A stretch of DNA of 52,863 nt from a virus (taxonomy: Duplodnaviria > Caudoviricetes). The stretch's first letter is position 1, and every line of letters starts with the position of its first letter. Below the pieces are notes generated by a model. That model had not been told where the DNA came from and searched no databases. It was given only the letters and a program-made list of their open reading frames with translations. The stretch lies in IMG/VR virus record IMGVR_UViG_3300006120_000477, positions 1 through 52,863 of that record; one strand, written 5' to 3'. The translations under genes were made by a program, and so were the position numbers. Below are positions 497 through 17,872 of the stretch, in pieces.

Positions 497-566
497 TATA
501 AATAAAGTGTCTGTCACGGTAACGCAAATACCCACAGACTCTAACGCTAAACAGGAGCATCAGCAT
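497..566 (+). promoter_or_regulatory. T4-type late promoter (TATAAATA 497-504) plus conserved structured leader, copy A
   Basis: TATAAATA-AAGT-GTCTGT-CAC-GGTA-loop-TACC-C-ACAGAC-TCTAA-CGCT..AGGAGC-ATCAGC; homologous to 14695-14761 and 17806-17872. Confidence 0.8.
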
Positions 567-1566
567 ATGGATATTTATAAGATTCTCGCCAGTAAACCAC
601 ATAATCCTCATTATCTTAATAGATATATAAGATTTATTGAATGGTGTCAACTAGCAAACAAAAATATAACCAGAAAATCAAAAAAGAATCCTGATGGAAT
701 ATATATATATGGAATCGCATCATATATGTCCTAAGGCAAAAGACTTGTTTCCAGAATATGCATCTTTTAGAAAAAACAAGTGGAATAAAATAGATTTGAC
801 TGCTAGACAGCATTTCATCATTCATTGGATCTTATGGAAAACATATAGTGGAAGCCAAACTGATGCTTTTTGGGCTATGCAAAGGTGTTCTGGAAATCAA
901 GAAAGATATTTCAGAGTTTCATCAAAAACCTATGAACAAATTAAACTCGGATTCTCTTCTAGGCATTCAGAAAGAATGAAAGGAGAAAATAATCCTTTTT
1001 ATAAAAAAACACATACAAAAGAAAATTTAGAGTTCTTTAGGGATTCTCAAAAAGGAATTTCTATAGTAGAAAGAGTTGGGGAAGAAAAAGCAAGAGAAAT
1101 AGAAGCAAAACAAAAGGCATATTACGATTCAATCAGAAAACCACCAAAACCAAAAAAGAGCAAAGAGCAAAAAAGTCTTGAGCTGTCTATCAGAATGACT
1201 GGCAAAAATAAGGGACCAAGCAAAAGACCAGATAATCCAAATAATGTCATATTTGAATTTTTAAATGTTCTAACCAATGAAACATTTATTGGAACTGGAT
1301 ATGATTTGCGTAAAAAATATAATTTATTACAAGCTAGTATGAGCGACTTAGTTAATAGAAAAAGAAATAATCATAAGGGATGGGTTATAGTAGAAAACGG
1401 AAAACACAATTATGTGTCTAGATCTGATCAGTCAAGGCAATCGAACAAACGACGGATAGAAGCAGGGACTCACCCATTCCAAAAAAGAGCGGATGGAACA
1501 TCCATCAGTGGAGATAAAGTAAAGAATGGAACCCATCCACTTTTAGCTAAAAATCGAAAAAATTAA
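567..1566 (+). pseudogene. Free-standing HNH (Mob-like) homing endonuclease, frameshifted at an (AT)6 tract
   Basis: ATG 567 follows AGGAG; the first frame (MDIYKILASKPHNPHYLNRYIRFI) joins ESHHICPK...LTARQHFIIH (HNH) plus NUMOD3-like GENNPFY in another frame; break at 699-710. Confidence 0.75.
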
Positions 1567-2516
1567 TCTGCATAAACTACTCTTGCTCCATCATTAGAAA
1601 TATTAACATCCAGACACACTCTATCTGAAAACTCATTCTTAATCTTTGATTTATTACCTGTCATGGCTAACATATAGCCACCGCCACCAGATCCAAGAAG
1701 TTTAGCGCCTGATGCACCAGCAGAAATGCAACGATCATATAAAAGGTCAATTTCTGGATTACTAATTGAATTTTCTGTCTGCTTCTTTAATTCCCATGCC
1801 TTATTGAGCAGAAAGCCATAATTATCAAATGAAGGAAGATATTGAGATTGTTGGTCAGCCATATTAGAAAGTTCTCTAATAATATGCGACTTCTTATCAA
1901 AATCAATTTTCTCAAGAATATCAGAAGAATGTCGTTGAATATTCGTTGGAATTAAAACCATGCAAGAATCAATCCCATTTGGATCCATCTTAGAAACAAT
2001 CACACGATCACTCTGTAGATATTTAATATAGTTCATACCACCAAATGCACTTGCATATGCATCTTGCTTTCCGATTTTGAAACCACAAAGATTGATCTCA
2101 GTGTGGCAGGCAGTTTCTGCAAGTTCATATTCATTATAGGGCTTTAATCCTAAATATTGCACCAATGCAGAAATAAGTGCAGAGGTAAATGCTGACGAGC
2201 CACCAAGTCCAGTACCAATAGTTGGAATATCTGCAAAGGTTGTAATCTCAATATTAGAAGAAATATTAAAAAACTTTAATGTATTTCTAACAATATCATG
2301 CTGAATATCGTCAACATTAGTCACACATTCCTGTTTAGAATAATTAAGTTTAATATGATTCTGTGGAGTCTTACCAACAGCAACATATACGAACTTATCA
2401 ATAGCTAGAGAAATCGTTGCTCCACCCCACTGAAGATAATGAGCAGGAATGTCGGATGAACCACCAAACGCTGAGATGCGAAGAGGCGCTTTAGCTAGGA
2501 TCAATTTCTTGTCCAT
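1563..2516 (-). CDS. hddA: GHMP-family sugar kinase, D-glycero-alpha-D-manno-heptose-7-phosphate kinase-like
   Basis: KAPLRISAFGGSSD, PTIGTGLGGSSA, GKQDAYASAFGG, GAKLLGSGGGG; adjacent to gmhA. Confidence 0.8.
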   Translation of the reverse strand: MDKKLILAKAPLRISAFGGSSDIPAHYLQWGGATISLAIDKFVYVAVGKTPQNHIKLNYSKQECVTNVDDIQHDIVRNTLKFFNISSNIEITTFADIPTIGTGLGGSSAFTSALISALVQYLGLKPYNEYELAETACHTEINLCGFKIGKQDAYASAFGGMNYIKYLQSDRVIVSKMDPNGIDSCMVLIPTNIQRHSSDILEKIDFDKKSHIIRELSNMADQQSQYLPSFDNYGFLLNKAWELKKQTENSISNPEIDLLYDRCISAGASGAKLLGSGGGGYMLAMTGNKSKIKNEFSDRVCLDVNISNDGARVVYAD

Positions 2517-2812
2517 TCATATTCAGAGTTGCCTGTCTTGAAACGGACATAGAGATACTCAGGATTATCTGGATCGGTTCGTTCTTCTAAAATCTCTGTG
2601 ATAACTGTTGTTTGCCAATAATCTTGAGCAGTAAATGATCTTGCATAATGAGAACCAACTCGCATAACAGCACCAACACGAGGCTCGGCATTCTCAATCT
2701 CTTCTACCGAGACAGCCTTACCAGTATCTTGATCAAAGGTTGGAATACAAGCAAGACTCATCAGACCGCTATCTCCAGCACCATCACGAATCCTATACAA
2801 TGAATATGTCAT
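2501..2812 (-). CDS. Hypothetical protein
   Basis: 103 aa ORF coupled to neighbouring genes. Confidence 0.65.
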   Translation of the reverse strand: MTYSLYRIRDGAGDSGLMSLACIPTFDQDTGKAVSVEEIENAEPRVGAVMRVGSHYARSFTAQDYWQTTVITEILEERTDPDNPEYLYVRFKTGNSEYEWTRN

Positions 2813-3813
2813 TATGAAGTCCTATAACTAAACTGTGCAGCAGGAACCTTTAGATCCTTGCCTTCATATTCATATACAAGAGAAGCACACAATGCATTCC
2901 ATTGATTAGCAATCCTTGACCAAGAATATCTATAATCTGAAAAAGTCTTCTGGAACTGTAGATATGGATACATATCAGTTTCTTTCATGCGGTTAATTGT
3001 ATCATTTAAAATAGCATAAAACATATTAGCATGAACATTCTGGTCCTGATCCCAATTATACTGCATGGTAATACCACCAGAAGTATCTGTCAATCCTGCA
3101 TAATTTGGATGGATACAAACACAACCGGCAGACATTGCTTCAATCAATGAACGGCTATTCTGCTCTGGCCAAATTGAGGGATAAGCAAAAATATGAGCCT
3201 TTGCCATATGTTCACGAACAACATCATTTGGTTGAAATCCATGATAATTAATCTTAGGATGATTTCGGCACCGATCAAATAATTCTTCAAATTGTTGATC
3301 TGCTTCAGCCCAACCATAAATCTTATAGCTAGAAAAGACATCCAGAACCAGATTATCGTGATGCTTGCAGAGTTCTTCAAATACAGGAACTAGAAGTGAT
3401 AGACCCCTCTGCGGCGTAGATGCATAAATTAGCCGAATCTCTTCCTTGGCATCACCCTTATTAATTGGACCAAGTGGTTCAATAGCAGTGTCAATCACAC
3501 AAGTCTTTTGATCATGAGGAATACCAAGAAAGTTCTGATATTGATTCATCTGGTAATTTCCGCAGTACACAATTTTGTGGAACTTATTGCGAAAATTTGG
3601 ATCCTTCAGTTGTTGACTCTCAGGATCTTGGGCTGTGTTATGTAGCCATAGAATTCGAATTCTATCATCATATAGTTCTCTTACCCGAGAAGAGATAATC
3701 TGAAACTTATCATGATATTCAGGATTTAGTCGGGCAAGCATACCCTCGACCATCATTTCAGAACCACCGTGACTCTTGGCATTCATCTCATCACGAGAAA
3801 AGATTTCACTCAT
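2812..3813 (-). CDS. Glycosyltransferase, GT-B fold (family 4-like)
   Basis: HGGSE at N-terminus, LIYASTPQRGL, FAYPSIWPEQNSRSLIEAMSAGC. Confidence 0.85.
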   Translation of the reverse strand: MSEIFSRDEMNAKSHGGSEMMVEGMLARLNPEYHDKFQIISSRVRELYDDRIRILWLHNTAQDPESQQLKDPNFRNKFHKIVYCGNYQMNQYQNFLGIPHDQKTCVIDTAIEPLGPINKGDAKEEIRLIYASTPQRGLSLLVPVFEELCKHHDNLVLDVFSSYKIYGWAEADQQFEELFDRCRNHPKINYHGFQPNDVVREHMAKAHIFAYPSIWPEQNSRSLIEAMSAGCVCIHPNYAGLTDTSGGITMQYNWDQDQNVHANMFYAILNDTINRMKETDMYPYLQFQKTFSDYRYSWSRIANQWNALCASLVYEYEGKDLKVPAAQFSYRTS

Positions 3814-4775
3814 ACTTTATTCAATTCCTTCTTTACAAACTCATAATGAGAATCAACAATTTCAGAAATGGTTTTAGTGGGTTCCCACTTTAGTTCCTGC
3901 CTGAGTGCAGTATTATCAGAAAACAAATATCCGGGGTCTCCATCTCGTCTTGGCGCAAAATCATAATTCAAACCATATAGATCTTTAACCATATTAGCAA
4001 GCTGAATATTAGAATATCCTACTCCAGACCCTACATTATATTGTGTATATGAAGTTGGAGCATCAGTTTGGATTTCCTTTGCGGCTGCAATAAGTGCCTG
4101 ACATACATCATAGACATGAATGTAATCCCTAACACAACTTTGGTCAAAGGTATTAAAATCATTGCCATTGATGTAGAATGTCTCATTATTTATAGACGCC
4201 TGACACATCTTGGTGAGAATGTGTGGTTGATCCAAATCCTGCCCCATACCATCAAACCCACCAGTGACATTGAAGAACCTCATGGAATATGCGCGCATAC
4301 CATATGCATTACAAGATTCTTCTAGGATTCGTTCACCGAACCATTTACTCCAACCATAAGGGTTGATAGGATAACCAGCATCTTCTTCTTTAAGAGCAAT
4401 ATTCTTATTAGGATCGCCATATGTTGCAGCAGATGATGCAAAGATAATTGGTGTATCTGGCTGTTCGTTTTTGATATTCTTTAGCATATCAATCATGCCA
4501 GAAACATTATTATCAAAATAATCCAGAGGATTCTTTACAGAAGGGCCAAGTAGACTATTAGCACCTAGATGGAAAATTACATCATACTTATGCTGAATAT
4601 ATGGTCGAGGATTTCCATAATGACCAACATAGTAATGATGAAAATCTGTCTCATCAAGTTCCCAATGAACTGGTTCTTTCAGATCAAGACCAAAGACCTG
4701 CCAGCCTTCATCTTTTAGAATCTTACAGAGAATACGACCGATATAGCCCTCGGCACCGGTTACCAAAGCCTTCAC
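3810..4775 (-). CDS. galE: NAD-dependent sugar epimerase (UDP-glucose 4-epimerase-like)
   Basis: VTGAEGYIG, FASSAATYG, PINPYGWSK (YxxxK), VRDYIHV, RRDGDP. Confidence 0.85.
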   Translation of the reverse strand: MKALVTGAEGYIGRILCKILKDEGWQVFGLDLKEPVHWELDETDFHHYYVGHYGNPRPYIQHKYDVIFHLGANSLLGPSVKNPLDYFDNNVSGMIDMLKNIKNEQPDTPIIFASSAATYGDPNKNIALKEEDAGYPINPYGWSKWFGERILEESCNAYGMRAYSMRFFNVTGGFDGMGQDLDQPHILTKMCQASINNETFYINGNDFNTFDQSCVRDYIHVYDVCQALIAAAKEIQTDAPTSYTQYNVGSGVGYSNIQLANMVKDLYGLNYDFAPRRDGDPGYLFSDNTALRQELKWEPTKTISEIVDSHYEFVKKELNKV

Positions 4776-5224
4776 GATACGCGCTCCTCATATACAGTGG
4801 TAGGAACATAAGGGAAATCAATGTATACACGACTTTCTTTACAGGTGAAATAAGACTTGCTCTTTTCGCCGTCTTCATTTGTATACCAGTCCCAGAAAAC
4901 CTTGCCTTCAATATCATATGCTCTACCATCAAAATCTTTGAATACTCGACTGCATCGCTTATTCTGATAATGAGTTTCATCATCATACTCAAGAAGAGTC
5001 CATTCTGAATCTTCTCCAGTAAGTGGAGACAGAGGCTCCCAACGAAGCAGTTTCTCCAAACAGTTAGTGACATATGATGCTGAGAACCCAGAATGTCCTT
5101 GTTCTGCAAACTTTTCTACCAGTTCAAGAATGGCATTCCGACCCATTGCATTATATTCATCACCATCTTCGGTCATACCAATTCGGTCAAGTTCACTCTT
5201 TGCATATTGTAACATATTACTCAT
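4772..5224 (-). CDS. Conserved hypothetical phage protein
   Basis: 150 aa, QGHSGFSA and QNKRCSRVFK motifs; ATGA coupling to neighbours. Confidence 0.7.
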   Translation of the reverse strand: MSNMLQYAKSELDRIGMTEDGDEYNAMGRNAILELVEKFAEQGHSGFSASYVTNCLEKLLRWEPLSPLTGEDSEWTLLEYDDETHYQNKRCSRVFKDFDGRAYDIEGKVFWDWYTNEDGEKSKSYFTCKESRVYIDFPYVPTTVYEERVS

Positions 5225-5391
5225 TCTTCAATACTTCCTAGTTCTTCTAATTCTCGTTGTTTATACATATCAGCAACTTCTAGAATGAGACTTAACACCG
5301 CCAAGGGACTAATCCTTGTGGCGATATTAACCACAATCCACTTGGCAACCACTGCCTTAAAAGTTTCCCAACGAGTTAATGGCTGCTTCAT
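5221..5391 (-). CDS. Small hypothetical protein (56 aa)
   Basis: Manual ORF MKQPLTRWETFKAVVAKWIVV...; ATGA overlaps at both ends. Confidence 0.6.
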   Translation of the reverse strand: MKQPLTRWETFKAVVAKWIVVNIATRISPLAVLSLILEVADMYKQRELEELGSIEE

Positions 5392-5894
5392 TCTGTAATT
5401 TCCTCAATTACTGTATAACCGATTACACTATCAACATCAAAACTGCGCCAAGAATTCTTATCAAGATCAAACACAGGAACAACTCCTTCAGATTTTTTAC
5501 GAGTGGTTTCCTTAGTCTTTTCTGGTGCGGTATAATACTCAGCAATAATTAATGGATTACGAGTGCAGAGCATAGTTCGCTCGGTGCCATCCTTCTTAGT
5601 GAAAGTAACACGAATTGTCGCACCATTATTAAGATCTTGTTCAATCAGAGATTCTGAAAAATACTTTTCAAGATCATCATAGCCACCGATACCGATATGA
5701 ATTGTAAATTCCTCATCATCTTCAACCCAAATCTGAGGAAAAGTTTTGGCCTCTGGAACTAGTTCTAGAAGTTCTTCACGAGTAAAATCCTTATTTAGTG
5801 TAAGGTAACTATACTCTCCGCCCTTTTGCTTAATTAGTGCCTTGGCTCGTTCACAAAAAGGGCAACCGTCCTTGCCATAAATTACAAAATTCAT
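5388..5894 (-). CDS. Glutaredoxin fused to a WYL_2/SH3-like domain
   Basis: YGKDGCPFC, TFPQI, IGGYDDL, then VTFTKKDGTERTMLCT...VFDLDKNSWRSF. Confidence 0.8.
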   Translation of the reverse strand: MNFVIYGKDGCPFCERAKALIKQKGGEYSYLTLNKDFTREELLELVPEAKTFPQIWVEDDEEFTIHIGIGGYDDLEKYFSESLIEQDLNNGATIRVTFTKKDGTERTMLCTRNPLIIAEYYTAPEKTKETTRKKSEGVVPVFDLDKNSWRSFDVDSVIGYTVIEEITE

Positions 5895-5896
5895 TT

Positions 5897-6028
5897 TCAA
5901 TACTCCAAAAATTCATCAAGCACACGCTGAATGTGCTTCTGTTTAGGCTCCCGTTTCTTATCAGGAACTACCTTAGGCTTATTATATTTCCAGATATTAC
6001 CAGCTACTGGATTACGAGTCTTTGACAT
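5897..6028 (-). CDS. Small basic hypothetical protein (43 aa)
   Basis: Manual ORF MSKTRNPVAGNIWKYNKPKVVPDKK..., GGAGG SD upstream. Confidence 0.6.
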   Translation of the reverse strand: MSKTRNPVAGNIWKYNKPKVVPDKKREPKQKHIQRVLDEFLEY

Positions 6029-6030
6029 AA

Positions 6031-6207
6031 TCACCTCCATGAAATATTATATATCATGATCTCAGAACCGGGATGCTTATTCTGTAGATAAGACTGAACA
6101 GCAAAATCTGATTGAGCGCCATTTAGCTGAACGATATTCCCCTGAATGCGAGTTCGACTTAGAGATCCATTCCTACCGTGGGAATAATCTGCAACAAAAT
6201 TCTTCAT
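6031..6207 (-). CDS. Hypothetical protein
   Basis: ORF with GGAG SD before ATG 6207. Confidence 0.6.
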   Translation of the reverse strand: MKNFVADYSHGRNGSLSRTRIQGNIVQLNGAQSDFAVQSYLQNKHPGSEIMIYNISWR

Positions 6208-6209
6208 AA

Positions 6210-6530
6210 TTATGCTCCATACCTGCAAATATCTTCAAACTCTTCATCGCTCATTGCGAGATAGTCCCACTCGGTGTAGCCCCAGCGGTCAACACCATCA
6301 CCAATGCCGACATAGTTGCCGTCAGCATCAAACGCGCTGTATCCGTAACTGTCGTAACCGTTTTCATCGTAGTTGTCAAAGTAAAGACGAGTGTCATAGA
6401 TTTCGCCTCGCTCTTTCATTTCAAGAGTCCATTCGGGAGGGATCTGGCGGTCTGCATTATAGCAGTAATCAGTGTAGGGGCGATCCACATCCTTGCGAGT
6501 CAGTACCGGGCTGTATTTACCTTTGCTCAT
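6210..6530 (-). CDS. Hypothetical protein with D-x-x-G-Y-D repeats
   Basis: AAGGAG SD before ATG 6530; YDENGYDSYGY, DRWGY. Confidence 0.65.
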   Translation of the reverse strand: MSKGKYSPVLTRKDVDRPYTDYCYNADRQIPPEWTLEMKERGEIYDTRLYFDNYDENGYDSYGYSAFDADGNYVGIGDGVDRWGYTEWDYLAMSDEEFEDICRYGA

Positions 6531-6559
6531 AATAAAATCTCCTTCGTTTCGATATGCCA

Positions 6560-6588
6560 TTTATACCAATGATTCGAAAAGGAGTCAA
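6560..6588 (-). promoter_or_regulatory. Sigma70-like early promoter
   Basis: TTGACT-N17-TATAAA. Confidence 0.65.
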
Positions 6589-6595
6589 GTCTATA

Positions 6596-7120
6596 TTATC
6601 GTCTACCTACAAAAAGGGTTTTGTTGACAAACTTTGGCTTAGAAAATAGATACCAGCAGCAGTTGTCTTTGCCAGAAGATTTGCTGCCCTCAATCCATTT
6701 AACTCTACCAACAGAGATAATGGCTTCACATCTATTCATAAAAGGAATTGATTGTTTGGTATGCATCCAATCTGCGTCAAACAAAAGCCAAGTCGGAAGT
6801 TGGTTGCTAAAATGTTCAATCATAGGATGAAGTAAATTACGATCCCATGGAGGATTAGTAATAATATAATCAGCACCCGAGGACAAATCTAATTCAAGGG
6901 CATCTGCTTCTTTAATATTATCTGCCTGAGGTTCAATATCCCATGCACCTTTACAAAGAAGTTTATTAGATTCTAGATGATTAATTAATCTACCATCACC
7001 AGCACATGGCTCATAAAATGTAGCATTTGGCATAAGATGTGGAAGTAAAGGAATTACTGCTGAAATTGGAGTGGGATAATAGTCTTTAGAAACTCGTTCA
7101 AAATCACTTCGTTTACCCAT
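6596..7120 (-). CDS. Orphan DNA N6-adenine methyltransferase
   Basis: DYYPTP, FYEPCAGDG (SAM-binding), IITNPPW (catalytic). Confidence 0.8.
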   Translation of the reverse strand: MGKRSDFERVSKDYYPTPISAVIPLLPHLMPNATFYEPCAGDGRLINHLESNKLLCKGAWDIEPQADNIKEADALELDLSSGADYIITNPPWDRNLLHPMIEHFSNQLPTWLLFDADWMHTKQSIPFMNRCEAIISVGRVKWIEGSKSSGKDNCCWYLFSKPKFVNKTLFVGRR

Positions 7121-7174
7121 AATAAAATACTTTCATAATTAATATATCCAGATAGAATATGATCGCTTAATACG

Positions 7175-7202
7175 AGTATACACTATCTGGATATATTGTC
7201 AA
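7175..7202 (-). promoter_or_regulatory. Sigma70-like promoter overlapping a 15-bp inverted repeat
   Basis: TTGACA-N16-TATACT; IR arms at 7141-7155 and 7183-7197. Confidence 0.6.
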
Positions 7203-7229
7203 GACCAATTGATAAATCTATTTACATAT

Positions 7230-8024
7230 TTATAGATCACATGCAATCATAGCTAGAATTACTTCCTTAGCAAATCCAGAACGAACAATATCTTCCACAT
7301 TAAACCCAACAGATTTCATTGATGGAATATGAGAGCATAGACGCAAAATAGAGTCTGCACCAGATTCTTCGGAAAACCGCTTAGATGTCAAATCATCCTG
7401 TTTGCGATCACCACAGAGAATAATCTTAGTGTTTTGTCCAATACGAGTTAATACAGTTACCGCATTTTGAAGATTTGTGTTCTGAAACTCATCAAAAATG
7501 ACAATAGTATCATCAATTGTCTGGCCACGCAAGAACGAAGTTGACTCAAATTGAATGATACCTTTATTCTTCAATGTTTGATATGCATTTGGATTATCAA
7601 ATAGTTTAGCACAAATTCCAACATAAGGAGTTTCGAATTCTGCCATTTTTTGTTTAGCAGATCCCGGCAAAAATCCGATATCTTTACCTGATTGAGCACT
7701 TCTAATAATGATTACTTTTTTATATTTGGTATTTGGTTTATTCAATACTTCATCTAGAGCCAAATATAAGCTGATGAAACTCTTTCCGGTTCCGGGGCAC
7801 CCATGGAGTATAAGATTTTTATCTTCTCTATAATACTTAAAAGTTAATTTCTGATTATCCGTCATTGGTTTAATGTTTTGAAGTTCAAGTGGCTTTGGTT
7901 GAGACTTATGAAGTTGAATTACATTATTGGAATTTCTTTTTGCTTTCCTAGCAGATTTACGCTGACGGCGTGATGGTTGTTCAGTATATTCTTCTACAGT
8001 ATCAAAGAAGTTTTGGTGACTCAT
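7230..8024 (-). CDS. phoH: PhoH-family ATPase
   Basis: GCPGTGKS, IGFLPG, FLRGQT, DEFQN, LTRIG, GDRKQDDL. Confidence 0.92.
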   Translation of the reverse strand: MSHQNFFDTVEEYTEQPSRRQRKSARKAKRNSNNVIQLHKSQPKPLELQNIKPMTDNQKLTFKYYREDKNLILHGCPGTGKSFISLYLALDEVLNKPNTKYKKVIIIRSAQSGKDIGFLPGSAKQKMAEFETPYVGICAKLFDNPNAYQTLKNKGIIQFESTSFLRGQTIDDTIVIFDEFQNTNLQNAVTVLTRIGQNTKIILCGDRKQDDLTSKRFSEESGADSILRLCSHIPSMKSVGFNVEDIVRSGFAKEVILAMIACDL

Positions 8025-8089
8025 ACAGGAGGTTACCTTTTATTAGAAGGGTTAGAGTAATTCTCACTTGCTCCATAATAACAGCGAAC

Positions 8090-8404: not shown

Positions 8405-8413
8405 CAATACTCC

Positions 8414-8621: not shown

Positions 8622-8622
8622 A

Positions 8623-10373: not shown

Positions 10374-10400
10374 GAATAATAACTCCTTTGGAACTATTTA

Positions 10401-10838: not shown

Positions 10839-10852
10839 TAATCACCTATTAT

Positions 10853-10927
10853 TGGCACGGCGGCTAGGATTCGAACCCAGACGAACGGATTTGGAGACCG
10901 TCATGCTACCATTAACATCACCTCCGC
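10853..10927 (-). tRNA. tRNA-Trp (CCA)
   Basis: Cloverleaf, anticodon loop CTCCAAA, GGTTCGAATCC, G73, encoded CCA. Confidence 0.85.
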
Positions 10928-10932
10928 ATTAA

Positions 10933-11703
10933 TTATTTAGTAATAGTCCAGAAATCACAAGCCAACTTTGGATCTATAACATACTTATAGGGCAATGTAA
11001 AGTATCCATTATCGCCCCAATCTGGCCCCCAAGAATTTCTTACAATGAATTTTTTTGTGGAATCTTTGAATCCTACAAGCAAAACTGCATGACCCCCGAT
11101 TGCTTTATCAAAAATTCCCGGCATATCTACTTCGCCACTATCAGCAACGTCTTCAGATTCAAAAGACGGATAAACAGTAAATCCAAATACAATAGGATAT
11201 CCAGAAGCAAGAACTTTTTTAATACTATCTAAATCCTGATTGACTTTAGCATAACCAGAAATCTTACGAGTTAATCCGTCTTGATATGCTTCAACAGTTG
11301 GTTTTATAGTAAACTTTTTCTCATCATATGGCCATACAGTCTCGGAACAGGCTCCTTCTTCTGAAAGAACTTTGATACCATCGCTGATATGGGCACCAGC
11401 ATCTTGAGAAACAGTTCCTTCAACTTCCCGCTCATTATAGTAAACAAATAGTCTACTAAGATGACAGAATTGTCCATTAGATTCTAGGTCTTTATCTTTA
11501 TTTTCTAGGTATTCTAAAGCACCAACTAAAGCATTTCCCGTGCAAGATCCAATATTTTTTTGATCAAATACAGGAGAACAATATTGTCTCAAGTCAATTT
11601 TATCAGGAATTGGTTCAGCAGTTAATTTAAATGCTGCATGGTTTTCAACATAGACATCATCAGGATTTTCTGGGGATTTAACCCAACCGTATTTATTGGA
11701 CAT
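10933..11703 (-). CDS. Papain-like cysteine peptidase, family C1
   Basis: QKNIGSCTGNA, GGHAV, RNSWG catalytic motifs. Confidence 0.9.
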   Translation of the reverse strand: MSNKYGWVKSPENPDDVYVENHAAFKLTAEPIPDKIDLRQYCSPVFDQKNIGSCTGNALVGALEYLENKDKDLESNGQFCHLSRLFVYYNEREVEGTVSQDAGAHISDGIKVLSEEGACSETVWPYDEKKFTIKPTVEAYQDGLTRKISGYAKVNQDLDSIKKVLASGYPIVFGFTVYPSFESEDVADSGEVDMPGIFDKAIGGHAVLLVGFKDSTKKFIVRNSWGPDWGDNGYFTLPYKYVIDPKLACDFWTITK

Positions 11704-11810
11704 AGGAAATTCTCCATTAGGGATCCTATGCATATTTATGAAATGCTGGATGGGGTCAGGAAAAGGCTCAAATTGGCATTAGTGTTATAATGAATCTGCT
11801 CAAGAAGTAA

Positions 11811-12194
11811 TTATTGAGATAATCTTTTGGATTTCGCTGATGCAGCCACAATCTTTAAAGTTCCTTTAATGTCAGAACTTTTTCTCACTATTGCAGCATC
11901 TTCTACTACATCTGGATTATACATTTTAAAATTATCGCCATGGCCGACTAAAATATGGCAATCTAAATCCATACAAAGTGTGATTAGATTGGTTGGGTCT
12001 AATTCAAGTTCTGGATGAAGATGAAATGGTTTTTTATGGTGAATCTGAAGTTTATTTTTAGATCCGCAACAAGCACACTCTGGATTATTTTCTTTATATT
12101 TATATTCAACCTCAGGCCATCTAGAGCTTCTTTTACTCTTATTCTTTAATTGATATACATGATGTCTGGCTAGACGAAGTATATGACCGATCAT
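11811..12194 (-). CDS. Small HNH endonuclease (McrA-like, CxxC)
   Basis: CACCG...LQIHH...PELELDPTNLITLC...CHILVGH. Confidence 0.8.
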   Translation of the reverse strand: MIGHILRLARHHVYQLKNKSKRSSRWPEVEYKYKENNPECACCGSKNKLQIHHKKPFHLHPELELDPTNLITLCMDLDCHILVGHGDNFKMYNPDVVEDAAIVRKSSDIKGTLKIVAASAKSKRLSQ

Positions 12195-12237
12195 TGCATT
12201 TCCCCACAAATAGTTTTTGATTCTATTTATGAAGAAA

Positions 12238-12390
12238 TGGGGTGCCCTATATCCACCGGTATCCAGAAGATATTGTTCTCTTACTCTGCCGACACCCAAC
12301 AGAGTCGTATCCTATCCATCATTTCATCACATTCCAGATAGGAGTACAATGTGATATACTTCTGTTCAGCCTAAGTCGGATCAAGTCCCC
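12238..12390 (-). ncRNA. Candidate ~153-nt structured ncRNA with a pseudoknot and CCA 3' end
   Basis: GGGG...CCCCA ends, CAGAAG/CTTCTG, ATCACATT/AATGTGAT crossed by TCCTATC/GATAGGA, ACTCTGTTGG/TCGGCAGAGT. Confidence 0.55.
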
Positions 12391-12440
12391 TATTAGTGTG
12401 CCTTGATGTTACTTATGCATCAGCAACACCTTCCGAATTC

Positions 12441-14015
12441 TTACGCTCTCCACTTTCCATTTACAATGAAGACCATCTGCCGCTTGCCATTCTTGTGAAT
12501 TAAACAATGTGCATGGTGCCATGTTGACAAACCGCTTACATAGGATAAATTAAAGATACTAGAAGTTCCTACTGTATAGTTGCCCTTATCAATTACAGGA
12601 GAGTGCGAATGTCCAGTAATAGTCTTCACAGGAATATTAGAAAACTGCTTCGAAGATCCACGAGATCCATTAGTTCCGCGATCACCATGATTAGATATTT
12701 CAACATCACAGATCTTAAATGCTTCGTTGCGACTTAGGAACTTTGTGTTTTCGTTCAAATATTCATCAGCAAACAATTCGAATGGTTCTGGACAATGGAC
12801 ATTCCCATCATTCATATTAGTTTGCTTTAGCATTCTATACATCAATTCATGATATAGTAAAGCATTTTCTGGATCATTCTTAGGATCACATTCATTTAAC
12901 CATCTCATCAAATGCTCATTATGATTTGATGCAATCATAATATTGGTGGCACCTTTTGGTGTAGTGTCTTTAATGAAATTAATTGTCAGCATAAGTTCAT
13001 TCAAAACAGACCCCATGCCCTTAGAATGATGTTTAGCGAACTTCAGAAACACATTATTCCGACCATGATGACTGGCAGAAAAGAAATCTAGAACATCGTG
13101 ACGAACAATATACTTTGGTTTAAGAATCTTAGCCAGAGACTTAGGACCATCATATGTTGCCTCCCTTACCTTAGGATCAACAAATAGAGCGTGTTCGTCA
13201 CCAGTAACTAGACCCTCAATAGTCTGATCGGAATTCCAACCAATGTCAGAATAATATCGATCTAGATCAGAAAATCCTTCTCCATCAAAATTTAGATGAC
13301 GAATGAAGAAATCCTTATCCTTATCAAATTCCAGAACAACAGCAGACATTGAATGATTAAATGCGGCCTTATATCCAGCCTTAGTTGTACTATATTGCTT
13401 TAGTGTAACAGCACCAGTTGTTGTGGCAATGGCAGGATATGGCTGTGCATTTCTAGGCAAAGTCCTCAGAGAAACCTGAGGGTGGCCAATAATGACATTA
13501 TATCCCTTTGATAAACCATCAATACCTGTCAAAGGATTCTCTGCTGTTGCCTGAATCTTCAATCCACCAAGGATTCGAATATTATGGCTCACATCAAAAT
13601 TGTTTTCAACTAGATATGGAATAACCCGATGATCATACCAGCATTCATCATCTTCTCCAACGGCAAGCATAGATGGATTCTTATACTTAATAGGAAACAC
13701 AACTAGCTTGGCCTTATTTGCATTACAATATTGAAGAAGTGAATTAAAAAACACCTCATCAACCGGTGAATTGTTTAATGCTGTAGTGAAGACGAGTTTC
13801 TTTGCTGATTTGAGTTCAATAAGATATTCTTCATCACGGAAATAATGAATATCATCATTGAGTGATTCAGACGAATCTTCAGAGGAATTGTCTTCTTTAG
13901 AAACTACAAAAGTCTCTCCGCATTCATTACAAGTATAGCCAAGACATTTATCCTTACCCATAAAACGCATTCCGAGCTTCTTAAGATTTTCAGAATCACA
14001 ATTAATACATTGCAT
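12441..14015 (-). CDS. T5 A1-like protein (metallophosphoesterase-fold nuclease) with N-terminal Zn ribbon
   Basis: CxxC..CxxC; GDEH, HDVLD, SNHNEH, HGDRGTNGSRGS, GHSHSP, VGTSS, NGKR. Confidence 0.7.
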   Translation of the reverse strand: MQCINCDSENLKKLGMRFMGKDKCLGYTCNECGETFVVSKEDNSSEDSSESLNDDIHYFRDEEYLIELKSAKKLVFTTALNNSPVDEVFFNSLLQYCNANKAKLVVFPIKYKNPSMLAVGEDDECWYDHRVIPYLVENNFDVSHNIRILGGLKIQATAENPLTGIDGLSKGYNVIIGHPQVSLRTLPRNAQPYPAIATTTGAVTLKQYSTTKAGYKAAFNHSMSAVVLEFDKDKDFFIRHLNFDGEGFSDLDRYYSDIGWNSDQTIEGLVTGDEHALFVDPKVREATYDGPKSLAKILKPKYIVRHDVLDFFSASHHGRNNVFLKFAKHHSKGMGSVLNELMLTINFIKDTTPKGATNIMIASNHNEHLMRWLNECDPKNDPENALLYHELMYRMLKQTNMNDGNVHCPEPFELFADEYLNENTKFLSRNEAFKICDVEISNHGDRGTNGSRGSSKQFSNIPVKTITGHSHSPVIDKGNYTVGTSSIFNLSYVSGLSTWHHAHCLIHKNGKRQMVFIVNGKWRA

Positions 14016-14045
14016 AAAATTTCCAATAAATTAGTTGAAAAGGTG

Positions 14046-14118
14046 AGCCGGTTAGAGGAATTGAACCCCTGACATCCAACTTACAAGGTTGGCGCTCTAC
14101 CATCTGAGCTAAACCGGC
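14046..14118 (-). tRNA. tRNA-Thr (TGT)
   Basis: CCAAC-CTTGTAA-GTTGG; no full encoded CCA. Confidence 0.9.
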
Positions 14119-14127
14119 ATTAATGTC

Positions 14128-14201
14128 TGGAGCGGAATGAGATAATCGAAATCTCCTAAACGGAATGGAAATCCGTTGCATTGCCACTATGCTAATCCCG
14201 C
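14128..14201 (-). tRNA. tRNA-Gly (TCC)
   Basis: ACGGA-TTTCCAT-TCCGT; U73, CCA. Confidence 0.85.
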
Positions 14202-14215
14202 ACTATCTGTATTTA

Positions 14216-14291
14216 TGGATGCCCCACTAGGCCACGATCCTAAACTCTTCTGACTCAAAATCAGATGTGTTGCCAATTACACCATGGGGCA
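14216..14291 (-). tRNA. tRNA-Gln (TTG)
   Basis: TCTGA-TTTTGAG-TCAGA; variant T-loop ATCGTGG; CCA. Confidence 0.8.
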
Positions 14292-14307
14292 TTAATTTAT
14301 ATAATTC

Positions 14308-14392
14308 TGGTGGGGACACCGGGACTCGAACCCGGATGAGATAAACTCGTCGCGTTTTAAGCACGATGTGGCTACCATTACACCATATCCCC
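14308..14392 (-). tRNA. tRNA-Leu (TAA)
   Basis: TCGTG-CTTAAAA-CGCGA, long variable arm, CCA. Confidence 0.9.
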
Positions 14393-14399
14393 GAATATC

Positions 14400-14482
14400 A
14401 AAACTGTTTAGAAGAACACAGTAGCAAGGTTACTATACCTTTAATTATGTGGCCACATCTACTGCATTCACCTAAAGAGTTT
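14400..14482 (-). ncRNA. Candidate structured RNA filling the tRNA-Lys/tRNA-Leu spacer
   Basis: AAACT/AGTTT, TTTAG/CTAAA, GAATGCAGTAG/CTACTGTGTTC closing two small hairpins. Confidence 0.45.
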
Positions 14483-14558
14483 TGGTGGACCCTGCTGGTT
14501 TCGAACCAGCGACCTAGAGATTAAAAAGCTCTTGCTCTACCTACTGAGCTAAGGGTCC
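14483..14558 (-). tRNA. tRNA-Lys (TTT)
   Basis: AGAGC-TTTTTAA-TCTCT, GGTTCGAAACC, CCA. Confidence 0.88.
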
Positions 14559-14587
14559 AATAAATATTAGCAAATCCTAAAAAAGAA

Positions 14588-14675
14588 ACCTCCCAACATT
14601 TGCATTGACTAGTTACAAATGTTGCCGTCTGTGATCAGATCGGATCTTGTCATATTTCAGACAGGGAACGGAGGC
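14588..14675 (-). ncRNA. Candidate three-way-junction ncRNA (~88 nt)
   Basis: GCCTCC/GGAGGT, CTGTCTG/CAGACGG, CAACATTTGTA/TGCAAATGTTG; imperfect pairs are G-U only on the minus strand. Confidence 0.55.
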
Positions 14676-14694
14676 AATATAAAAATCAAAGATA

Positions 14695-14761
14695 TATAAA
14701 TAAAGTGTGACTCGCGATACTCCAATATCCAGTCACTCTAATTCTGTCAAGGAGAATCAGC
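14695..14761 (+). promoter_or_regulatory. Late promoter plus conserved structured leader, copy B
   Basis: TATAAATA-AAGT-GTGACT-CGC-GATA-loop-TATC-C-AGTCAC-TCTAA-TTCT..AGGAGAA-TCAGC-ATG. Confidence 0.8.
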
Positions 14762-15436
14762 ATGAATATTTATTCAGATTTTGTATTCTATGATAAATTA
14801 ATATCGCCAGTCAATGGTTATGAGTGTAGAATAATTAATATAAAAAATATTAAATTCTTTGGTTATGATACTATAGAATTTCTACATGATCAATATCCAA
14901 ATTTTCCTACACAATGTGAAGAATACAAAGACAAATTGCGCGCAGCAAACAAAAGAAATTCTCACATATATAAAACAGAAGAGTATAGAGCAAAACAATC
15001 AAAAAACGTTAGCGCATATTTCTCTAAACAAGAAAATAGAGATGCACATTCTAAAAAGATGAAAATGGCAGTAATAAATAATCCAGATTCATATTCAAAA
15101 AACAATGTTTCCGGTAGAGCAAAATTATACGAATATAATGGAATGACATTTAAGGGAACTTGGGAATTAATCTTTGCAAAATGGCTAGATGAAAATTGTA
15201 TAAATTTTATACAACCAGAGCCAGTATCATATTTAGATGGCACAGGTAGAGAAAGATTATATTTTCCTGATTTCTATCTAACAGATTATGAATTATATAA
15301 TGAAGTTAAAGGATATGAAAGAGAATTAGATAGAATTAAATGGAACTCTCTTGATAAAATTAGAGTTATAAGAAGTAAAGATATTTCTATGATCAAAAAG
15401 GGAACCTTTACTATATCAGATCTTATATCATATTAA
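14762..15436 (+). CDS. Free-standing PD-(D/E)XK (TnsA-N-like) putative homing endonuclease in the tRNA cluster
   Basis: KGTWELIFAKWLD...YFPDFYL...EVKG; antisense to surrounding genes. Confidence 0.75.
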   Translation: MNIYSDFVFYDKLISPVNGYECRIINIKNIKFFGYDTIEFLHDQYPNFPTQCEEYKDKLRAANKRNSHIYKTEEYRAKQSKNVSAYFSKQENRDAHSKKMKMAVINNPDSYSKNNVSGRAKLYEYNGMTFKGTWELIFAKWLDENCINFIQPEPVSYLDGTGRERLYFPDFYLTDYELYNEVKGYERELDRIKWNSLDKIRVIRSKDISMIKKGTFTISDLISY

Positions 15437-15444
15437 TTATAGAC

Positions 15445-15537
15445 TGGTGCGCCGGGAGGGACTTGAACCCCCAACCGTTCGGTAATCTGCCGATCATGAG
15501 GTATAAGCTCACCGCTCTACCATTGAGCTACCGGCGC
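15445..15537 (-). tRNA. tRNA-Ile (TAT) with long variable arm
   Basis: GTGAG-CTTATAC-CTCAT, extra arm TCGG-CAGATTA-CCGA, GGTTCAAGTCC, A73, CCA. Confidence 0.8.
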
Positions 15538-15586
15538 ACTAATTGTTTATATCTTCACTTTAAAGCTTCCGGAGTAAACTAAAATA

Positions 15587-16090
15587 TCACATACTCAGTG
15601 GGAATGTAGTCACAATCACATGGGGTTCAATATACTGTGGCGTCACCTTATCCTTACCGGGAACCTTACAGAGTACCCATGTGCCATCAGCACTAGCAGG
15701 ACTATAAAGACCATTTGGATCGGCTTGGGGCAATGTCACATTGCCATGATCAGGAGTCTCGTCCATTCGTGCAACTCGCTGAGGATTGGTATACTGAGTA
15801 GCATATGGCAGACCATATCCAATGCTATCACAGACCTTATGAGTATGACCATTGAGATCAACAATGTAAGTATATGTTACTAGATCTGGACGGTCACGAA
15901 GTTCGAGAATGTCCTTCATAAACCGCTTCTCTTGGAAGTTTGTAATTGCAGGAACACCAATCATTTCAACTCCCTGCTTGGTAAGTTCCTCCTGCTTTTG
16001 GTTCTGGATCTGGTCACCAGTTTGTGCAGTCCCATCACACCCAGCAAGAGCCAGAGTAGCGACAGTGAGTAGCATAATATTCTTAATCAT
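15587..16090 (-). CDS. Predicted lipoprotein
   Basis: Signal peptide ending LAGC; SIGYGLPYATQYTNP, QADPNGLYS. Confidence 0.75.
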   Translation of the reverse strand: MIKNIMLLTVATLALAGCDGTAQTGDQIQNQKQEELTKQGVEMIGVPAITNFQEKRFMKDILELRDRPDLVTYTYIVDLNGHTHKVCDSIGYGLPYATQYTNPQRVARMDETPDHGNVTLPQADPNGLYSPASADGTWVLCKVPGKDKVTPQYIEPHVIVTTFPLSM

Positions 16091-16104
16091 AATATAGTTT
16101 CCTT

Positions 16105-16419
16105 TCACTTAATTGATTCATAGAAAGTACGAAGATCGGCAGGCATCTTATTCTCTGGGTAAACTTCAAACCTCTGTCGGATAATTGGGCGAAGTGCTTC
16201 CTTACCCGCTTCATCAGAAGTCACATACTGTCGCTGGAGTTCCGACAAGTCTCGTACCATACCTTGGTTGTACTGCTCAGACTGCTCAAAAACTTTCTCA
16301 TCAACTGCCCGATACTTTGGCGCAAAGAATTCATAAGACTTATAACCACCGTATGATAGACCAAATACCAGTGCTAAAGCCAGAACAATTCCGCCTACTG
16401 TAACAAAAACTTCCTTCAT
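16105..16419 (-). CDS. Membrane-anchored hypothetical protein
   Basis: N-terminal TM helix; VFEQSEQYNQG. Confidence 0.7.
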   Translation of the reverse strand: MKEVFVTVGGIVLALALVFGLSYGGYKSYEFFAPKYRAVDEKVFEQSEQYNQGMVRDLSELQRQYVTSDEAGKEALRPIIRQRFEVYPENKMPADLRTFYESIK

Positions 16420-16429
16420 AGTAATCCTT

Positions 16430-16591
16430 TCAAAGTTCTAGATGTTCCCAATCAATATCATCAAGTCCCTTAGAGACACGATACAAATTGTATGCCAAGA
16501 GTGCAGCAGTTCCGGTAATACCAAATACTGCAAAAATTGCTGCGCGTTTACCCCACTTAATGCTCTCTTGTTTCAGAGTTTCTTTATTCAT
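16430..16591 (-). CDS. Small membrane protein (53 aa)
   Basis: Manual ORF MNKETLKQESIKWGKRAAIFAVFGITGTAALLAY..., GGAG SD. Confidence 0.6.
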   Translation of the reverse strand: MNKETLKQESIKWGKRAAIFAVFGITGTAALLAYNLYRVSKGLDDIDWEHLEL

Positions 16592-16607
16592 ATTAAACTC
16601 CACGAAA

Positions 16608-16684
16608 TGGTGGACCCGGCAGAATTCGAATCTGCAACCCCAAAATTAGAAGTTTTGTGCTCTATCCAGTTGAGCTACGGGTCC
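16608..16684 (-). tRNA. tRNA-Arg (TCT)
   Basis: CAAAA-CTTCTAA-TTTTG, A20, CCA. Confidence 0.9.
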
Positions 16685-16693
16685 TTAAACCTA

Positions 16694-16903
16694 TTAAATT
16701 CGATTATTCAGACGATGCAAAAGATTCACAGTTTGCTTCTCATCCAATTCTGTAACATCTCCACTATGACCAATATAGAACATAAGAGCCTTCTTAATCA
16801 ACGCAATATCATTAGGAGCAAAGATACCACCTTTAACCATCCTAGGTGTAGAACTCTTTCCGGCATCAGTCATACCTTCTTCAATATCAAACGTACTCAT
16901 CAT
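16694..16903 (-). CDS. Hypothetical protein
   Basis: 69 aa, coupled to upstream ORF. Confidence 0.6.
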   Translation of the reverse strand: MMSTFDIEEGMTDAGKSSTPRMVKGGIFAPNDIALIKKALMFYIGHSGDVTELDEKQTVNLLHRLNNRI

Positions 16904-17076
16904 TTACTCTCCATAGTAGCTAAAAAACTATTTGCCGAATCAAACCAATCTAAAACTTCTGGTTCCAGTATAACACCTTCTCGATAATCATGCAATAGTG
17001 AACAATATTGACGTTCAATAATAGTTCGATTTTCATTCTTTAAATCTGGAAACTTGAAGACTAGAACTTCAGTCAT
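16900..17076 (-). CDS. Hypothetical protein
   Basis: AGGAG SD before ATG 17076. Confidence 0.55.
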   Translation of the reverse strand: MTEVLVFKFPDLKNENRTIIERQYCSLLHDYREGVILEPEVLDWFDSANSFLATMESK

Positions 17077-17093
17077 GTCGTATCTCCTAAAAA

Positions 17094-17612
17094 TCATTTC
17101 CTATCAAAATGATGAAACCCATCATGTTCTCCAGAATAATTCCAACCAGAATCATTCATCGACTTATGAAAATGTTTGTTATTAACCATTGTTTTATATA
17201 GACTTCCTAGTTTATCACCAGCACTTCTAAATTTAATGTTTTTGATATTCTTTTCTTTTGCTATGTGATCAATAACATGCATTGATTTTCCAAAGGCCCC
17301 AATCGGATTTGATCTGGTATATCTTTGTTGATCATTGTAATCAAAAATATTATTAGATGGCTTATCGTGAGTTCCTAGAATTGCTTCTCCTGATTGTAAC
17401 ACACTAACAGCATGATGTCCAGTAGTATTATTAGATACATGATGAAAAAATGCATGATGTGTCGGACCCTGATCTGTCATTCTAGTTGATATCTTATTAT
17501 CATCTGCTTCAATATTAGAACCAAATTTAGTGGGAGTATTCGTTATGGCTTCTGATAGACAAAAATCATGAAACGATATGAGTTCACCATTAAAAACTTC
17601 AAAACAACTCAT
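17094..17612 (-). CDS. Hypothetical His-rich protein, possible internal head protein
   Basis: ISFHDFCLSE resembles the SFxEF..E motif of the head-cargo block. Confidence 0.55.
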   Translation of the reverse strand: MSCFEVFNGELISFHDFCLSEAITNTPTKFGSNIEADDNKISTRMTDQGPTHHAFFHHVSNNTTGHHAVSVLQSGEAILGTHDKPSNNIFDYNDQQRYTRSNPIGAFGKSMHVIDHIAKEKNIKNIKFRSAGDKLGSLYKTMVNNKHFHKSMNDSGWNYSGEHDGFHHFDRK

Positions 17613-17666
17613 ATCATTTCTCCATTAAAATATGGCCAGCAGTTTATAGACGTACTAAGGACTTAA

Positions 17667-17742
17667 GGCTCTCCATCCTCGTACCGCCCGAGGCAAATAG
17701 CGGTGTAACAGACCGCCGCGTTCGCTTGCTCGCCCATGGAGA
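17667..17742 (-). tRNA. Aberrant tRNA-Asn-like RNA (GTT) with non-canonical D and T loops
   Basis: TCTCCAT/ATGGAGA acceptor, G73, GCGGT-CTGTTAC-ACCGC, T arm CCTCG-GGCGGTA-CGAGG. Confidence 0.65.
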
Positions 17743-17760
17743 ATAACTCTTTATGTGCAT

Positions 17761-17788
17761 AGTATATCACAATACAAACTAAAGTCAA
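17761..17788 (-). promoter_or_regulatory. Sigma70-like promoter upstream of the tRNA-Asn-like gene
   Basis: TTGACT-N16-TATACT. Confidence 0.6.
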
Positions 17789-17805
17789 CCATAAAATTCA
17801 AGATA

Positions 17806-17872
17806 TATAAATAAAGCGTGACTCGCGAGGAACCAACTCCAGTCACTCTAACGCTAAAAAGGAGCATCAGCA
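17806..17872 (+). promoter_or_regulatory. Late promoter plus conserved structured leader, copy C
   Basis: TATAAATA-AAGC-GTGACT-CGC-GAG-loop-CTC-C-AGTCAC-TCTAA-CGCT..AGGAGC-ATCAGC. Confidence 0.8.

Follow-up and report, generated by a model that had tools for sequence, protein, structure and literature searches.

The 52,863-nucleotide (nt) stretch of DNA analysed here in full (the window; IMG/VR virus record IMGVR_UViG_3300006120_000477) derives from an uncultured freshwater T4-like phage, whose record is ~29% complete and whose DNA polymerase shares 49% identity with that of the nearest cultured phages, the Synechococcus myoviruses. Its plus strand carries three endonuclease genes that are each preceded by a copy of the same small structured module, at 497-580 (copy 1), 14695-14775 (copy 2) and 17806-17886 (copy 3). 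An earlier note on this DNA had described the three elements as a covarying leader of the endonuclease mRNAs, and direct reading of the plus strand found them at the coordinates it gave. We show here that the module belongs to a large family and that its conserved structure lies, with high probability, on the minus strand, which makes it a candidate antisense RNA gene.

On the gene strand, the copies share one layout, namely the late-promoter box TATAAATA, AAG-YG, a bulged hairpin, CTCTAA, a small stem around AGGAG, TCAGC and the start codon ATG. The 14-mer TATAAATAAAGYGT (at most one mismatch) occurs three times in the window compared with 0.07 occurrences expected, and three or more occurrences were found in 0 of 100 shuffles. 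The Shine-Dalgarno (SD) sequence GGAG and the ATG lie at 554-557 and 567-569 in copy 1, with the SD at 14751-14754 and 17861-17864 and the ATG beginning at 14762 and 17873 in copies 2 and 3. The stems listed in the earlier note are correct (GTCTGT/ACAGAC versus GTGACT/AGTCAC; GGTA/TACC, GATA/TATC and GAG/CTC; GCT/AGC versus TTCT/AGAA). The start that it gave for the element also stood, but its end did not, as the conserved part runs ~14 nt farther, through ATG-NN-TATTTAT.

Copy 1 precedes an HNH/NUMOD3 homing-endonuclease gene (phrog_655; 567-1566, plus strand). Copies 2 and 3 precede PD-(D/E)XK-like endonuclease genes of phrog_15137 on the same strand (14762-15436, 224 amino acids (aa), and 17873-18502, 209 aa), the latter with an N-terminal C2H2 zinc finger. 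As had been proposed, all three genes are antisense to their neighbours. The phrog and profile searches agreed with the proposed assignment of one HNH and two PD-(D/E)XK-like genes; the HNH gene, however, is frameshifted between ~650 and 735 (frames 567-734, then 694-1566) behind an intact module. Because a contig from another sequencing run spans 1-2486 with 0 gaps, the frameshift is probably real, and the gene could be decaying or could use a programmed shift. The two phrog_15137 proteins share the PD-(D/E)XK-like core ...PDFYL...E-[IV]-K-GY, and the PD-(D/E)XK-like protein of the window has homologues in cultured phages. A PDB sequence search with the zinc-finger endonuclease returned only spurious matches to RecA constructs and a zinc finger. 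The window has two further endonuclease-like genes, with starts at 21611 and 25918, whose late boxes (at 21634 and 25939) are plain and which lack the module motif, as the earlier note had observed.

We scanned IMG/VR for further copies with two patterns. The first (TATAAATAAAG..CTCTAA..GGAG) matched 62 loci, 60 of which were clearly homologous, and the two chance matches (L028 and L060) were removed. The second, anchored on TCGCG..CCA....CTCTAA..CAGC with the promoter, the SD and the coding part (TATTTA) left free, returned at least 120 stretches. A covariance model of the element (R1), when searched against the phage contigs, recovered the scan matches plus 13 copies outside both patterns. 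The resulting family comprises at least 140 distinct copies from 126 loci on contigs of T4-like phages, with up to five copies in a single phage record. Five of the 140 copies, with long inserts or a missing motif, are omitted from alignment A5 (L079:1501-1588, L128:3263-3344, L114:446-537, L175:131-212 and L146:3003-3095). With filters off, R1 scored the three copies of the window at 81-90 bits (81.4 on the plus strand, 89.8 and 84.0 for copies 1 to 3), and the next best site at 15 bits.

A distinct open reading frame (ORF) of at least 60 aa follows the module in 129 of the 140 copies; the remaining 11 copies, which precede decayed or missing ORFs (shorter than 60 aa or none), were omitted from the protein tallies. 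Among the 129 proteins, 59 matched NUMOD3, 76 phrog_314 ('homing endonuclease') and 39 phrog_655, with smaller numbers for three HNH families (17, 11 and 8), GIY-YIG (11) and SegE-type endonucleases (6). Judged from these sequence matches, members of at least three nuclease superfamilies (HNH, GIY-YIG and PD-(D/E)XK-like) carry the module. The family scans and protein tallies bear out the earlier proposal of a portable module in front of unrelated endonuclease families, and the family alignments, set beside the downstream-protein families, confirm that the module is more conserved than the proteins behind it.

The helices covary as had been described: on the gene strand, RNAalifold returned the same helices, with compensatory changes in 13 of 14 pairs. 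In 59 copies, 97.4% of the gene-strand cells paired, with many double changes, compared with 74.9% in shuffles and 26-51% in slid controls. These values, a hairpin that begins where the late transcript is expected to start and a 3-base-pair (bp) stem flanking the SD would all suit the earlier idea of an mRNA leader in which a 5′ hairpin and a small hairpin at the SD serve as a binding site for a protein or ligand or shield the 5′ end. The non-Watson-Crick pairs, however, point to the other strand. In the bulged hairpin (stem1/stem2 of the earlier note, termed hairpin B here), we counted 17 A.C versus one U.G on the gene strand of the 59 copies and 28 A.C versus three G.U in 82 further independent copies, or 45 versus four in total. 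Because each A.C of the plus strand reads as G.U on its complement, the wobble pairs assign the structure to the minus strand.

Hairpin B occupies 509-539, 14707-14736 and 17818-17846 on the minus strand and consists of a 6-bp stem, a G-C, G.U or A-U pair between two bulged G residues, and an upper stem of 3-5 bp. The bulged bases (515 and 517, 14713 and 14715, 17824 and 17826; C on the plus strand, G in the antisense RNA) are invariant in all alignments that we made. Folding hairpin B as antisense gave the more stable structure in 124 of 139 copies (mean -11.6 versus -9.0 kcal/mol), and 55 of the 139 antisense folds close the apical loop by a U.G pair that exists on the minus strand only.

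When the alignment was reverse-complemented, RNAalifold returned an additional 8-bp helix (helix A) between the complement of ..TCAG(C) and the complement of (CT)CTAAYNNN, and the energy was -23.2 kcal/mol compared with -13.9 kcal/mol for the sense strand. In the window, helix A lies at 541-563, 14738-14760 and 17848-17870 (minus strand), where its 8 bp include G.U pairs and its 7-nt loop contains the anti-SD sequence CUCC. CTCTAA and TCAGC had looked fixed and unpaired because both form this minus-strand helix; they are fixed, but they pair with each other on the opposite strand. Helix A pairs move among G-C, G.U and A-U as in RNA helices, and the third pair is G.U in 135 of 137 copies.

The three copies of the window behave like the family. 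As two antisense hairpins, copies 1 to 3 fold at -19.5, -17.2 and -17.7 kcal/mol, compared with -11.8, -12.2 and -12.9 kcal/mol in the sense orientation. The fold z values are -1.3 to -2.4 for antisense and -0.6 to -1.2 for sense. A second covariance model in antisense orientation with 19 pairs (R2) gave three matches in the window, every one on the minus strand (77.8 bits with 0 non-standard pairs, 88.4 bits and 75.6 bits for copies 1 to 3).

The main counts in favour of the minus strand come with three caveats. In the R2 alignment, which comprises 82 distinct copies, pairing reaches 98.6% of 1558 cells (80.1% in shuffles, 30-51% in slid controls) and one pair is G.U in 82 of 82 copies, but this alignment is model-fitted and leans towards structure. 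The helix A count also leans towards structure, since the bulge position was chosen by us in 29 of 137 helices; over 1096 cells it gave 854 Watson-Crick pairs, 240 G.U pairs and two mismatches on the minus strand, compared with 854, 0 and 242 on the plus strand (three of the 140 copies, in which CTCTAA or CAGC was not parsed, are omitted). Finally, because CTCTAA was imposed by both scan patterns and CAGC by the second, their invariance is partly due to ascertainment; among the 13 copies that R1 alone recovered, CTCTA occurs in 13, CTCTAA in 12 and CAGC in 12.

On balance, we hold it highly probable that the conserved structure resides on the minus strand. The claim that the selected structure is the endonuclease mRNA leader was not supported, given 45 A.C versus four G.U in hairpin B and a CTCTAA/TCAGC helix that is impossible on the gene strand, where it has no G.U and 242 mismatches. 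A leader of that kind would also leave CTCTAA, TCAGC and TATTTAY unexplained, and we consider it improbable. The earlier view of the module as a portable expression unit is thus partly supported: the portable unit appears right and its strand wrong. Inspection by eye for a pseudoknot (pairing between the loop and CAGC), a ribozyme (hammerhead-like CUGAUG) and a tRNA-like fold (GTTAGAG arm) gave readings that were inconsistent across members, and all three were rejected.

Both ends of the module resemble late promoters. The sense box TATAAATA of the endonuclease gene lies at 497-504, 14695-14702 and 17806-17813 (plus strand), and NNTAAATA is found upstream in 133 of the 140 copies. At the opposite end, TATTTA repeats the core of the sense box, TAAATA, in reverse complement. 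In copy 1, this inverted box (572-579, minus strand; TATTTATA on the plus strand and TATAAATA on the minus strand) covers codons 2-5 of the endonuclease ORF, and copies 2 and 3 read ATAAATA on the minus strand at 14767-14773 and 17878-17884. In the window as a whole, ATAAATA occurs 43 times compared with 25 expected, often directly upstream of genes. The endonuclease gene of the same protein family that lacks the module in the window also lacks the inverted motif.

An inverted TAYTTA-like motif is present in 135 of the 140 copies, with exact TATTTA in 111 of these and TACTTAT in 19, and lies 4-6 nt past CAGC in 130 of the 135. Because it is kept in three reading frames (107, 23 and 5 copies, yielding M-x-I-Y, M-Y-L or M-I-F), the constraint acts at the nucleotide level. 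The variable base next to the core shows like preferences in both boxes (T>C>G,A for the last base of the inverted motif). Of 138 copies, 101 have a hairpin that starts 5 nt past the sense box, and of 135 copies, 89 have one that starts 6 nt past the inverted box. In T4, the late box lies about one helical turn upstream of the transcription start (+1), as described in PMC2988020, and hairpins that begin 5-7 nt past each box match the late-transcript start expected from this spacing. As read from the sequence, the conserved module runs exactly from one late box to the other, both included, and the two boxes are convergent.

Exact complements flanking the SD and the AUG also fit a mechanism established for I-TevI, segB and Aeh1 mobE (PMC2988022, in its account of these genes), in which read-through RNA would pair the late box with TATTTAY and lock the SD and AUG, while late transcripts would start inside the closed junction and hence be translatable. 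However, no covariation links the base that precedes TAAATA to the one that follows TATTTA: a C before the sense box is accompanied by a G after TATTTA in 0 of 15 cases. A helix of 6-8 bp, all A/U, that closes a 60-nt junction would be weak, both flanking ORFs are antisense in 59 of the 140 copies, so that upstream sense transcription is not expected there, and the minus-strand wobble pattern is left unexplained. Because the flanking bases do not covary, we rejected this pairing as the main explanation, and its probability is, in our view, even a little lower than that of the mRNA leader discussed above.

The T4 paradigm, as set out in PMC2988022, is a sense-strand hairpin over the ribosome-binding site (RBS) of I-TevI, I-TevII, I-TevIII, segB and Aeh1 mobE, with the late start inside the structure and control via upstream read-through. 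The module resembles these systems in having a late promoter directly upstream of an endonuclease gene and a predicted RNA structure at the SD region that would limit expression. In contrast to them, its conserved helices exist on the antisense strand only, and most copies face away from upstream transcription. On the sense strand, a 3-bp stem touches the SD and the longer helix has mismatches in 242 of 1096 cells; the ORFs on both sides share the orientation of the endonuclease in only 26 members, and the three genes of the window are antisense to their neighbours.

Essentially the same hairpin reading was proposed by Dassa et al. (2009; PMC2677866), who, in the passages on these leaders, describe the leaders of free-standing endonuclease ORFs, Vsr-like and GIY-YIG, from metagenomic 'fractured gene' loci: 15 of the 16 leaders have hairpins, 10 of these including TATAAATA, together with two conserved complementary motifs. 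They interpreted these as mRNA hairpins by analogy with Aeh1 mobE. Like the module, the elements come from uncultured T4-like phages and combine a late box, a hairpin and complementary motifs ahead of several endonuclease families, and the hairpin was retained after loss of the endonuclease (PMC2677866). Unlike the account given here, those passages of PMC2677866 neither assign a strand nor mention an antisense promoter or helix A. Compared by text description only, the hairpins are probably the same element or a sister element. Because hairpins, TATAAATA and complementary motifs were thus already reported there (PMC2677866), the novelty of the module is lower than the earlier note assumed.

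At the copy-1 locus, the module is part of an inserted cassette. A segment of 1102 bp (469-1570, plus strand) is absent from the close relative L229, whose flanks are 86% identical and in which R1 finds no module. The 8-bp direct repeat TTAATCTG borders the cassette on both sides (461-468 and 1563-1570), and the cassette contains 28 nt with a new SD and start for a host gene, the module and the HNH gene. With presence and absence between close relatives and an endonuclease ORF, the locus has the properties of a free-standing homing-endonuclease cassette, and the empty allele shows that the module travels with it. In L230, a more distant relative (69% identical protein), the copy-1 site is likewise empty, and another module-bearing endonuclease cassette lies ~1 kb away; the module of L230 and L231 (3371-3459, minus strand) sits between neighbouring host genes and is again antisense to them. 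Contigs from four DNA sequencing runs, searched over 1-19500, yielded none that joins across any cassette, their pieces being short and uninformative on empty alleles.

The insertion also touches the neighbouring host gene, which brings in the main rival explanation. Positions 469-496 hold a replacement SD and ATG-ACT-AAA codons for the minus-strand host gene 477..1, which starts 19 nt beyond the module, whereas in the empty allele (L229:4420-4540) the counterpart of this gene overlaps its upstream neighbour, with the ATG 8 nt before the upstream stop. The module could accordingly be an outward late promoter with a structured leader (hairpins A and B) for the host gene cut off by the cassette from its promoter, so that expression of this gene would be restored or boosted; the structure would stabilise the host mRNA or attenuate its transcription, and a discrete small RNA would be a by-product. 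This would fit the upstream minus-strand ORFs that start within 40 nt of the module in 35 of 83 members, as well as the embedded promoters for downstream host genes that, in the examples of PMC2988022, are carried by T4 endonuclease genes.

The orientation of the flanking genes speaks against such a leader. Of the 140 members, 59 have antisense ORFs on both sides of the endonuclease gene, 26 have co-oriented ORFs on both sides, 24 are mixed and 31 have one or two sides that could not be assigned. In the 26 co-oriented members, hairpin B has six A.C versus one G.U, and none of the 26 lacks helix A or the inverted box. Because the minus-strand signature appears in both antisense and co-oriented contexts, a host transcript is not the general source of a minus-strand RNA, and because the structure is kept in co-oriented contexts, an antisense RNA would need its own promoter. 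In the 44 of 127 members whose upstream ORF runs the same way as the endonuclease gene, transcription to the left would yield an RNA antisense to a host gene, yet structure and box are equally kept. In addition, a simple leader has no need of an invariant G.U pair, bulges or an anti-SD loop.

At copy 3, a good sigma-70-like promoter (17761-17788, minus strand; TTGACT-16 nt-TATACT with an upstream TG) separates the module from the next host gene, which starts at 17612. It may re-start host transcription after the module, and its presence does not favour a leader function of the module itself. Taken together, we regard the host-gene leader as unlikely. The 52 flanks of the 26 co-oriented members matched Pfam families of T4 core genes that include DNA polymerase B, topoisomerase, UvsY, UvsW, the clamp loader and terminase. 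A link to the split-intein 'fractured genes' was rejected, as no intein family is among the 25 listed of the 36 families matched by these flanks.

In the 44 members with a co-oriented upstream ORF, the stop codon of that ORF abuts or falls inside the sense box, so that module and cassette have their left edge in common. Such an edge, and the homology for exchange offered by several copies per genome, would also be expected of a single-stranded DNA structure of the minus strand that serves recombination, replication or cassette shuffling, and G.T wobble is tolerated in DNA too. PeSL elements, which PMC4122927 and PMC2839356 describe as composite terminator and early-promoter cassettes of T4-like phages, with a stem-loop joined to an early sigma-70-type promoter at the flanks of ORFans, have been proposed as mobile regulatory cassettes that mediate such shuffling (PMC4122927). 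Similar to PeSL, the module is a small conserved stem-loop and promoter unit repeated at the edges of variable genes. Unlike PeSL, its boxes are of the late type (NNTAAATA), the downstream genes are endonucleases instead of ORFans, the start codon is included and two hairpins covary. Homing needs no element-specific DNA ends, recombination alone selects neither compensatory changes nor a conserved G.U, and promoter-oriented boxes with hairpins at the predicted +1 fit transcription better. We therefore assign a DNA structure the smallest probability of the alternatives considered.

The mechanism that the evidence supports best, to which we give about an even chance, is a cis-antisense RNA of 65-70 nt with two hairpins that would govern the endonuclease. 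In this model, the module would be a compact two-way expression unit at the 5′ end of free-standing homing-endonuclease cassettes, bounded by two convergent late boxes ~75 bp apart. The left box would fire rightwards to give the endonuclease mRNA, and the right, inverted box would fire leftwards to give a short RNA antisense to the 5′ untranslated region of that mRNA (in the window, approximately from 566 to 497, 14761 to 14695 and 17872 to 17806). This RNA would carry the conserved structure, with helix A first, its loop presenting the SD complement, and hairpin B one nucleotide later. Hairpin B and the U-rich tail, ACUUU(U)AUUUA, would end or pause the transcript, possibly as a leaky intrinsic terminator. 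The antisense RNA would then pair with the mRNA leader, probably starting from the complementary loops, and cover the RBS, so that the translation or stability of a potentially harmful nuclease would be held down late in infection.

In this scheme, the promoter activity of the inverted box, the positions of the RNA ends and the direction of regulation are inferred. Because antisense RNAs are also known to protect mRNAs from RNase E during phage infection, at least in the case reported in PMC3113571, the effect may be of either sign. The tail is the reverse complement of the sense box, and the design appears palindromic in that each late box would double as the tail or the first codons of the other transcript. 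We tentatively extend the model, at somewhat less than even confidence, to a widespread, hitherto unrecognised family of cis-antisense RNA genes of this palindromic design that would act as a portable governor for GIY-YIG, HNH and PD-(D/E)XK endonucleases and allow them to settle harmlessly in T4-like genomes.

Several observations count against this antisense mechanism. Hairpin B was not called by a simple terminator scan, its stem is bulged and the first two bases of the tail are not U. At copy 1, where the host gene starts 19 nt past the tail, efficient termination would silence that gene, and the leftward transcript seems to have to continue into it; if termination is partial, an antisense RNA and read-through into the host gene could both be true. 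The inverted box reads TAAGTA, with a change in its core, in 19 of the 140 copies. Finally, the two invariant bulged G residues and the near-invariant G.U pair exceed what a plain antisense RNA or terminator needs, and in the extended model they suggest a dedicated protein partner of the antisense RNA.

Short cis-antisense RNAs are familiar from temperate phages, with P22 sar and lambda OOP as examples and P22 sar as the closest mechanistic analogue of the module. Like the predicted RNA, sar and OOP are 60-80 nt long, are transcribed from a promoter that faces the promoter of the target, are complementary to the RBS of the target and end in a hairpin. As in sar, complementarity to the RBS is embedded in a structured RNA, here as the complement of GGAG in the helix A loop. 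Sar and OOP are single loci, whereas the module is portable, occurs in at least 140 distinct copies in front of three nuclease superfamilies, and has late boxes that would double as the tail or codons of the partner transcript. Within T4-like phages, the cyanophage S-PM2 encodes CfrI, an antisense RNA of ~225 nt that links an endonuclease gene to psbA and was described as the first antisense RNA reported in this group (Millard et al. 2010; PMC2984593, in the part dealing with CfrI). CfrI and the module thus share the setting of an antisense RNA, predicted in our case, at a homing-endonuclease gene of a T4-like phage.

No named RNA family matched the module, in line with the earlier note: Rfam 15, searched over the whole window on both strands, returned only eight tRNAs, and a permissive Rfam search of 14660-14800 gave a best score of 18.6 bits (E = 0.85) compared with a gathering score of 70. 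A megablast search of 1-2600 and a blastn search of one module against 50,697 phage records found no match. R1 detected the module in 0 of the 3 cyanophage genomes nearest by gp43 at E ≤ 0.01, with one match of 19 bits (E = 0.78). Our literature searches turned up no account of an inverted late promoter, or of an antisense RNA, at the 5′ end of genes of this kind.

T4-like phages harbour homing endonucleases as their chief selfish elements, and the control that keeps their expression harmless is only partly understood. If the model is true, an antisense RNA gene that travels with the nuclease would be a second, portable answer beside the sense-strand RBS hairpin, in abundant uncultured phages of freshwater and marine habitats. 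With 82 positions, 19 covarying pairs and at least 140 natural variants, the module is a compact candidate for a new RNA family, and the model predicts convergent late promoters 75 bp apart. More generally, the asymmetry between G.U and A.C can assign a strand to a structure that resembles an mRNA leader.

Further mobile-gene features were found in the window. Eight tRNA genes lie at 10856-16684 (minus strand), seven of them within 14046-16684. Copy 2 and its endonuclease gene are inside this cluster, between the tRNAs at 14486-14558 and 15448-15537, a placement that recalls segB, which sits in the tRNA region of T4. The nrdA gene is in pieces on the minus strand, with an N-terminal part at 25949-27400 (profile positions 62-497 of 975) and a C-terminal part at 24301-25317 (profile positions 502-795). 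Between them lies an endonuclease gene (25307-25918, minus strand; phrog_314, starting MITLYVKTH) without the module but with a plain late box and an SD-in-loop hairpin, GTAGTG-AGGAGAA-CACTAC. Directly downstream of the C-terminal part, a 551-aa ORF (22649-24304, minus strand) resembles 'Hef-like homing endonucleases' of T4-like phages of Yersinia, Acinetobacter and Escherichia, with 29-32% identity over 86-96% of its length.

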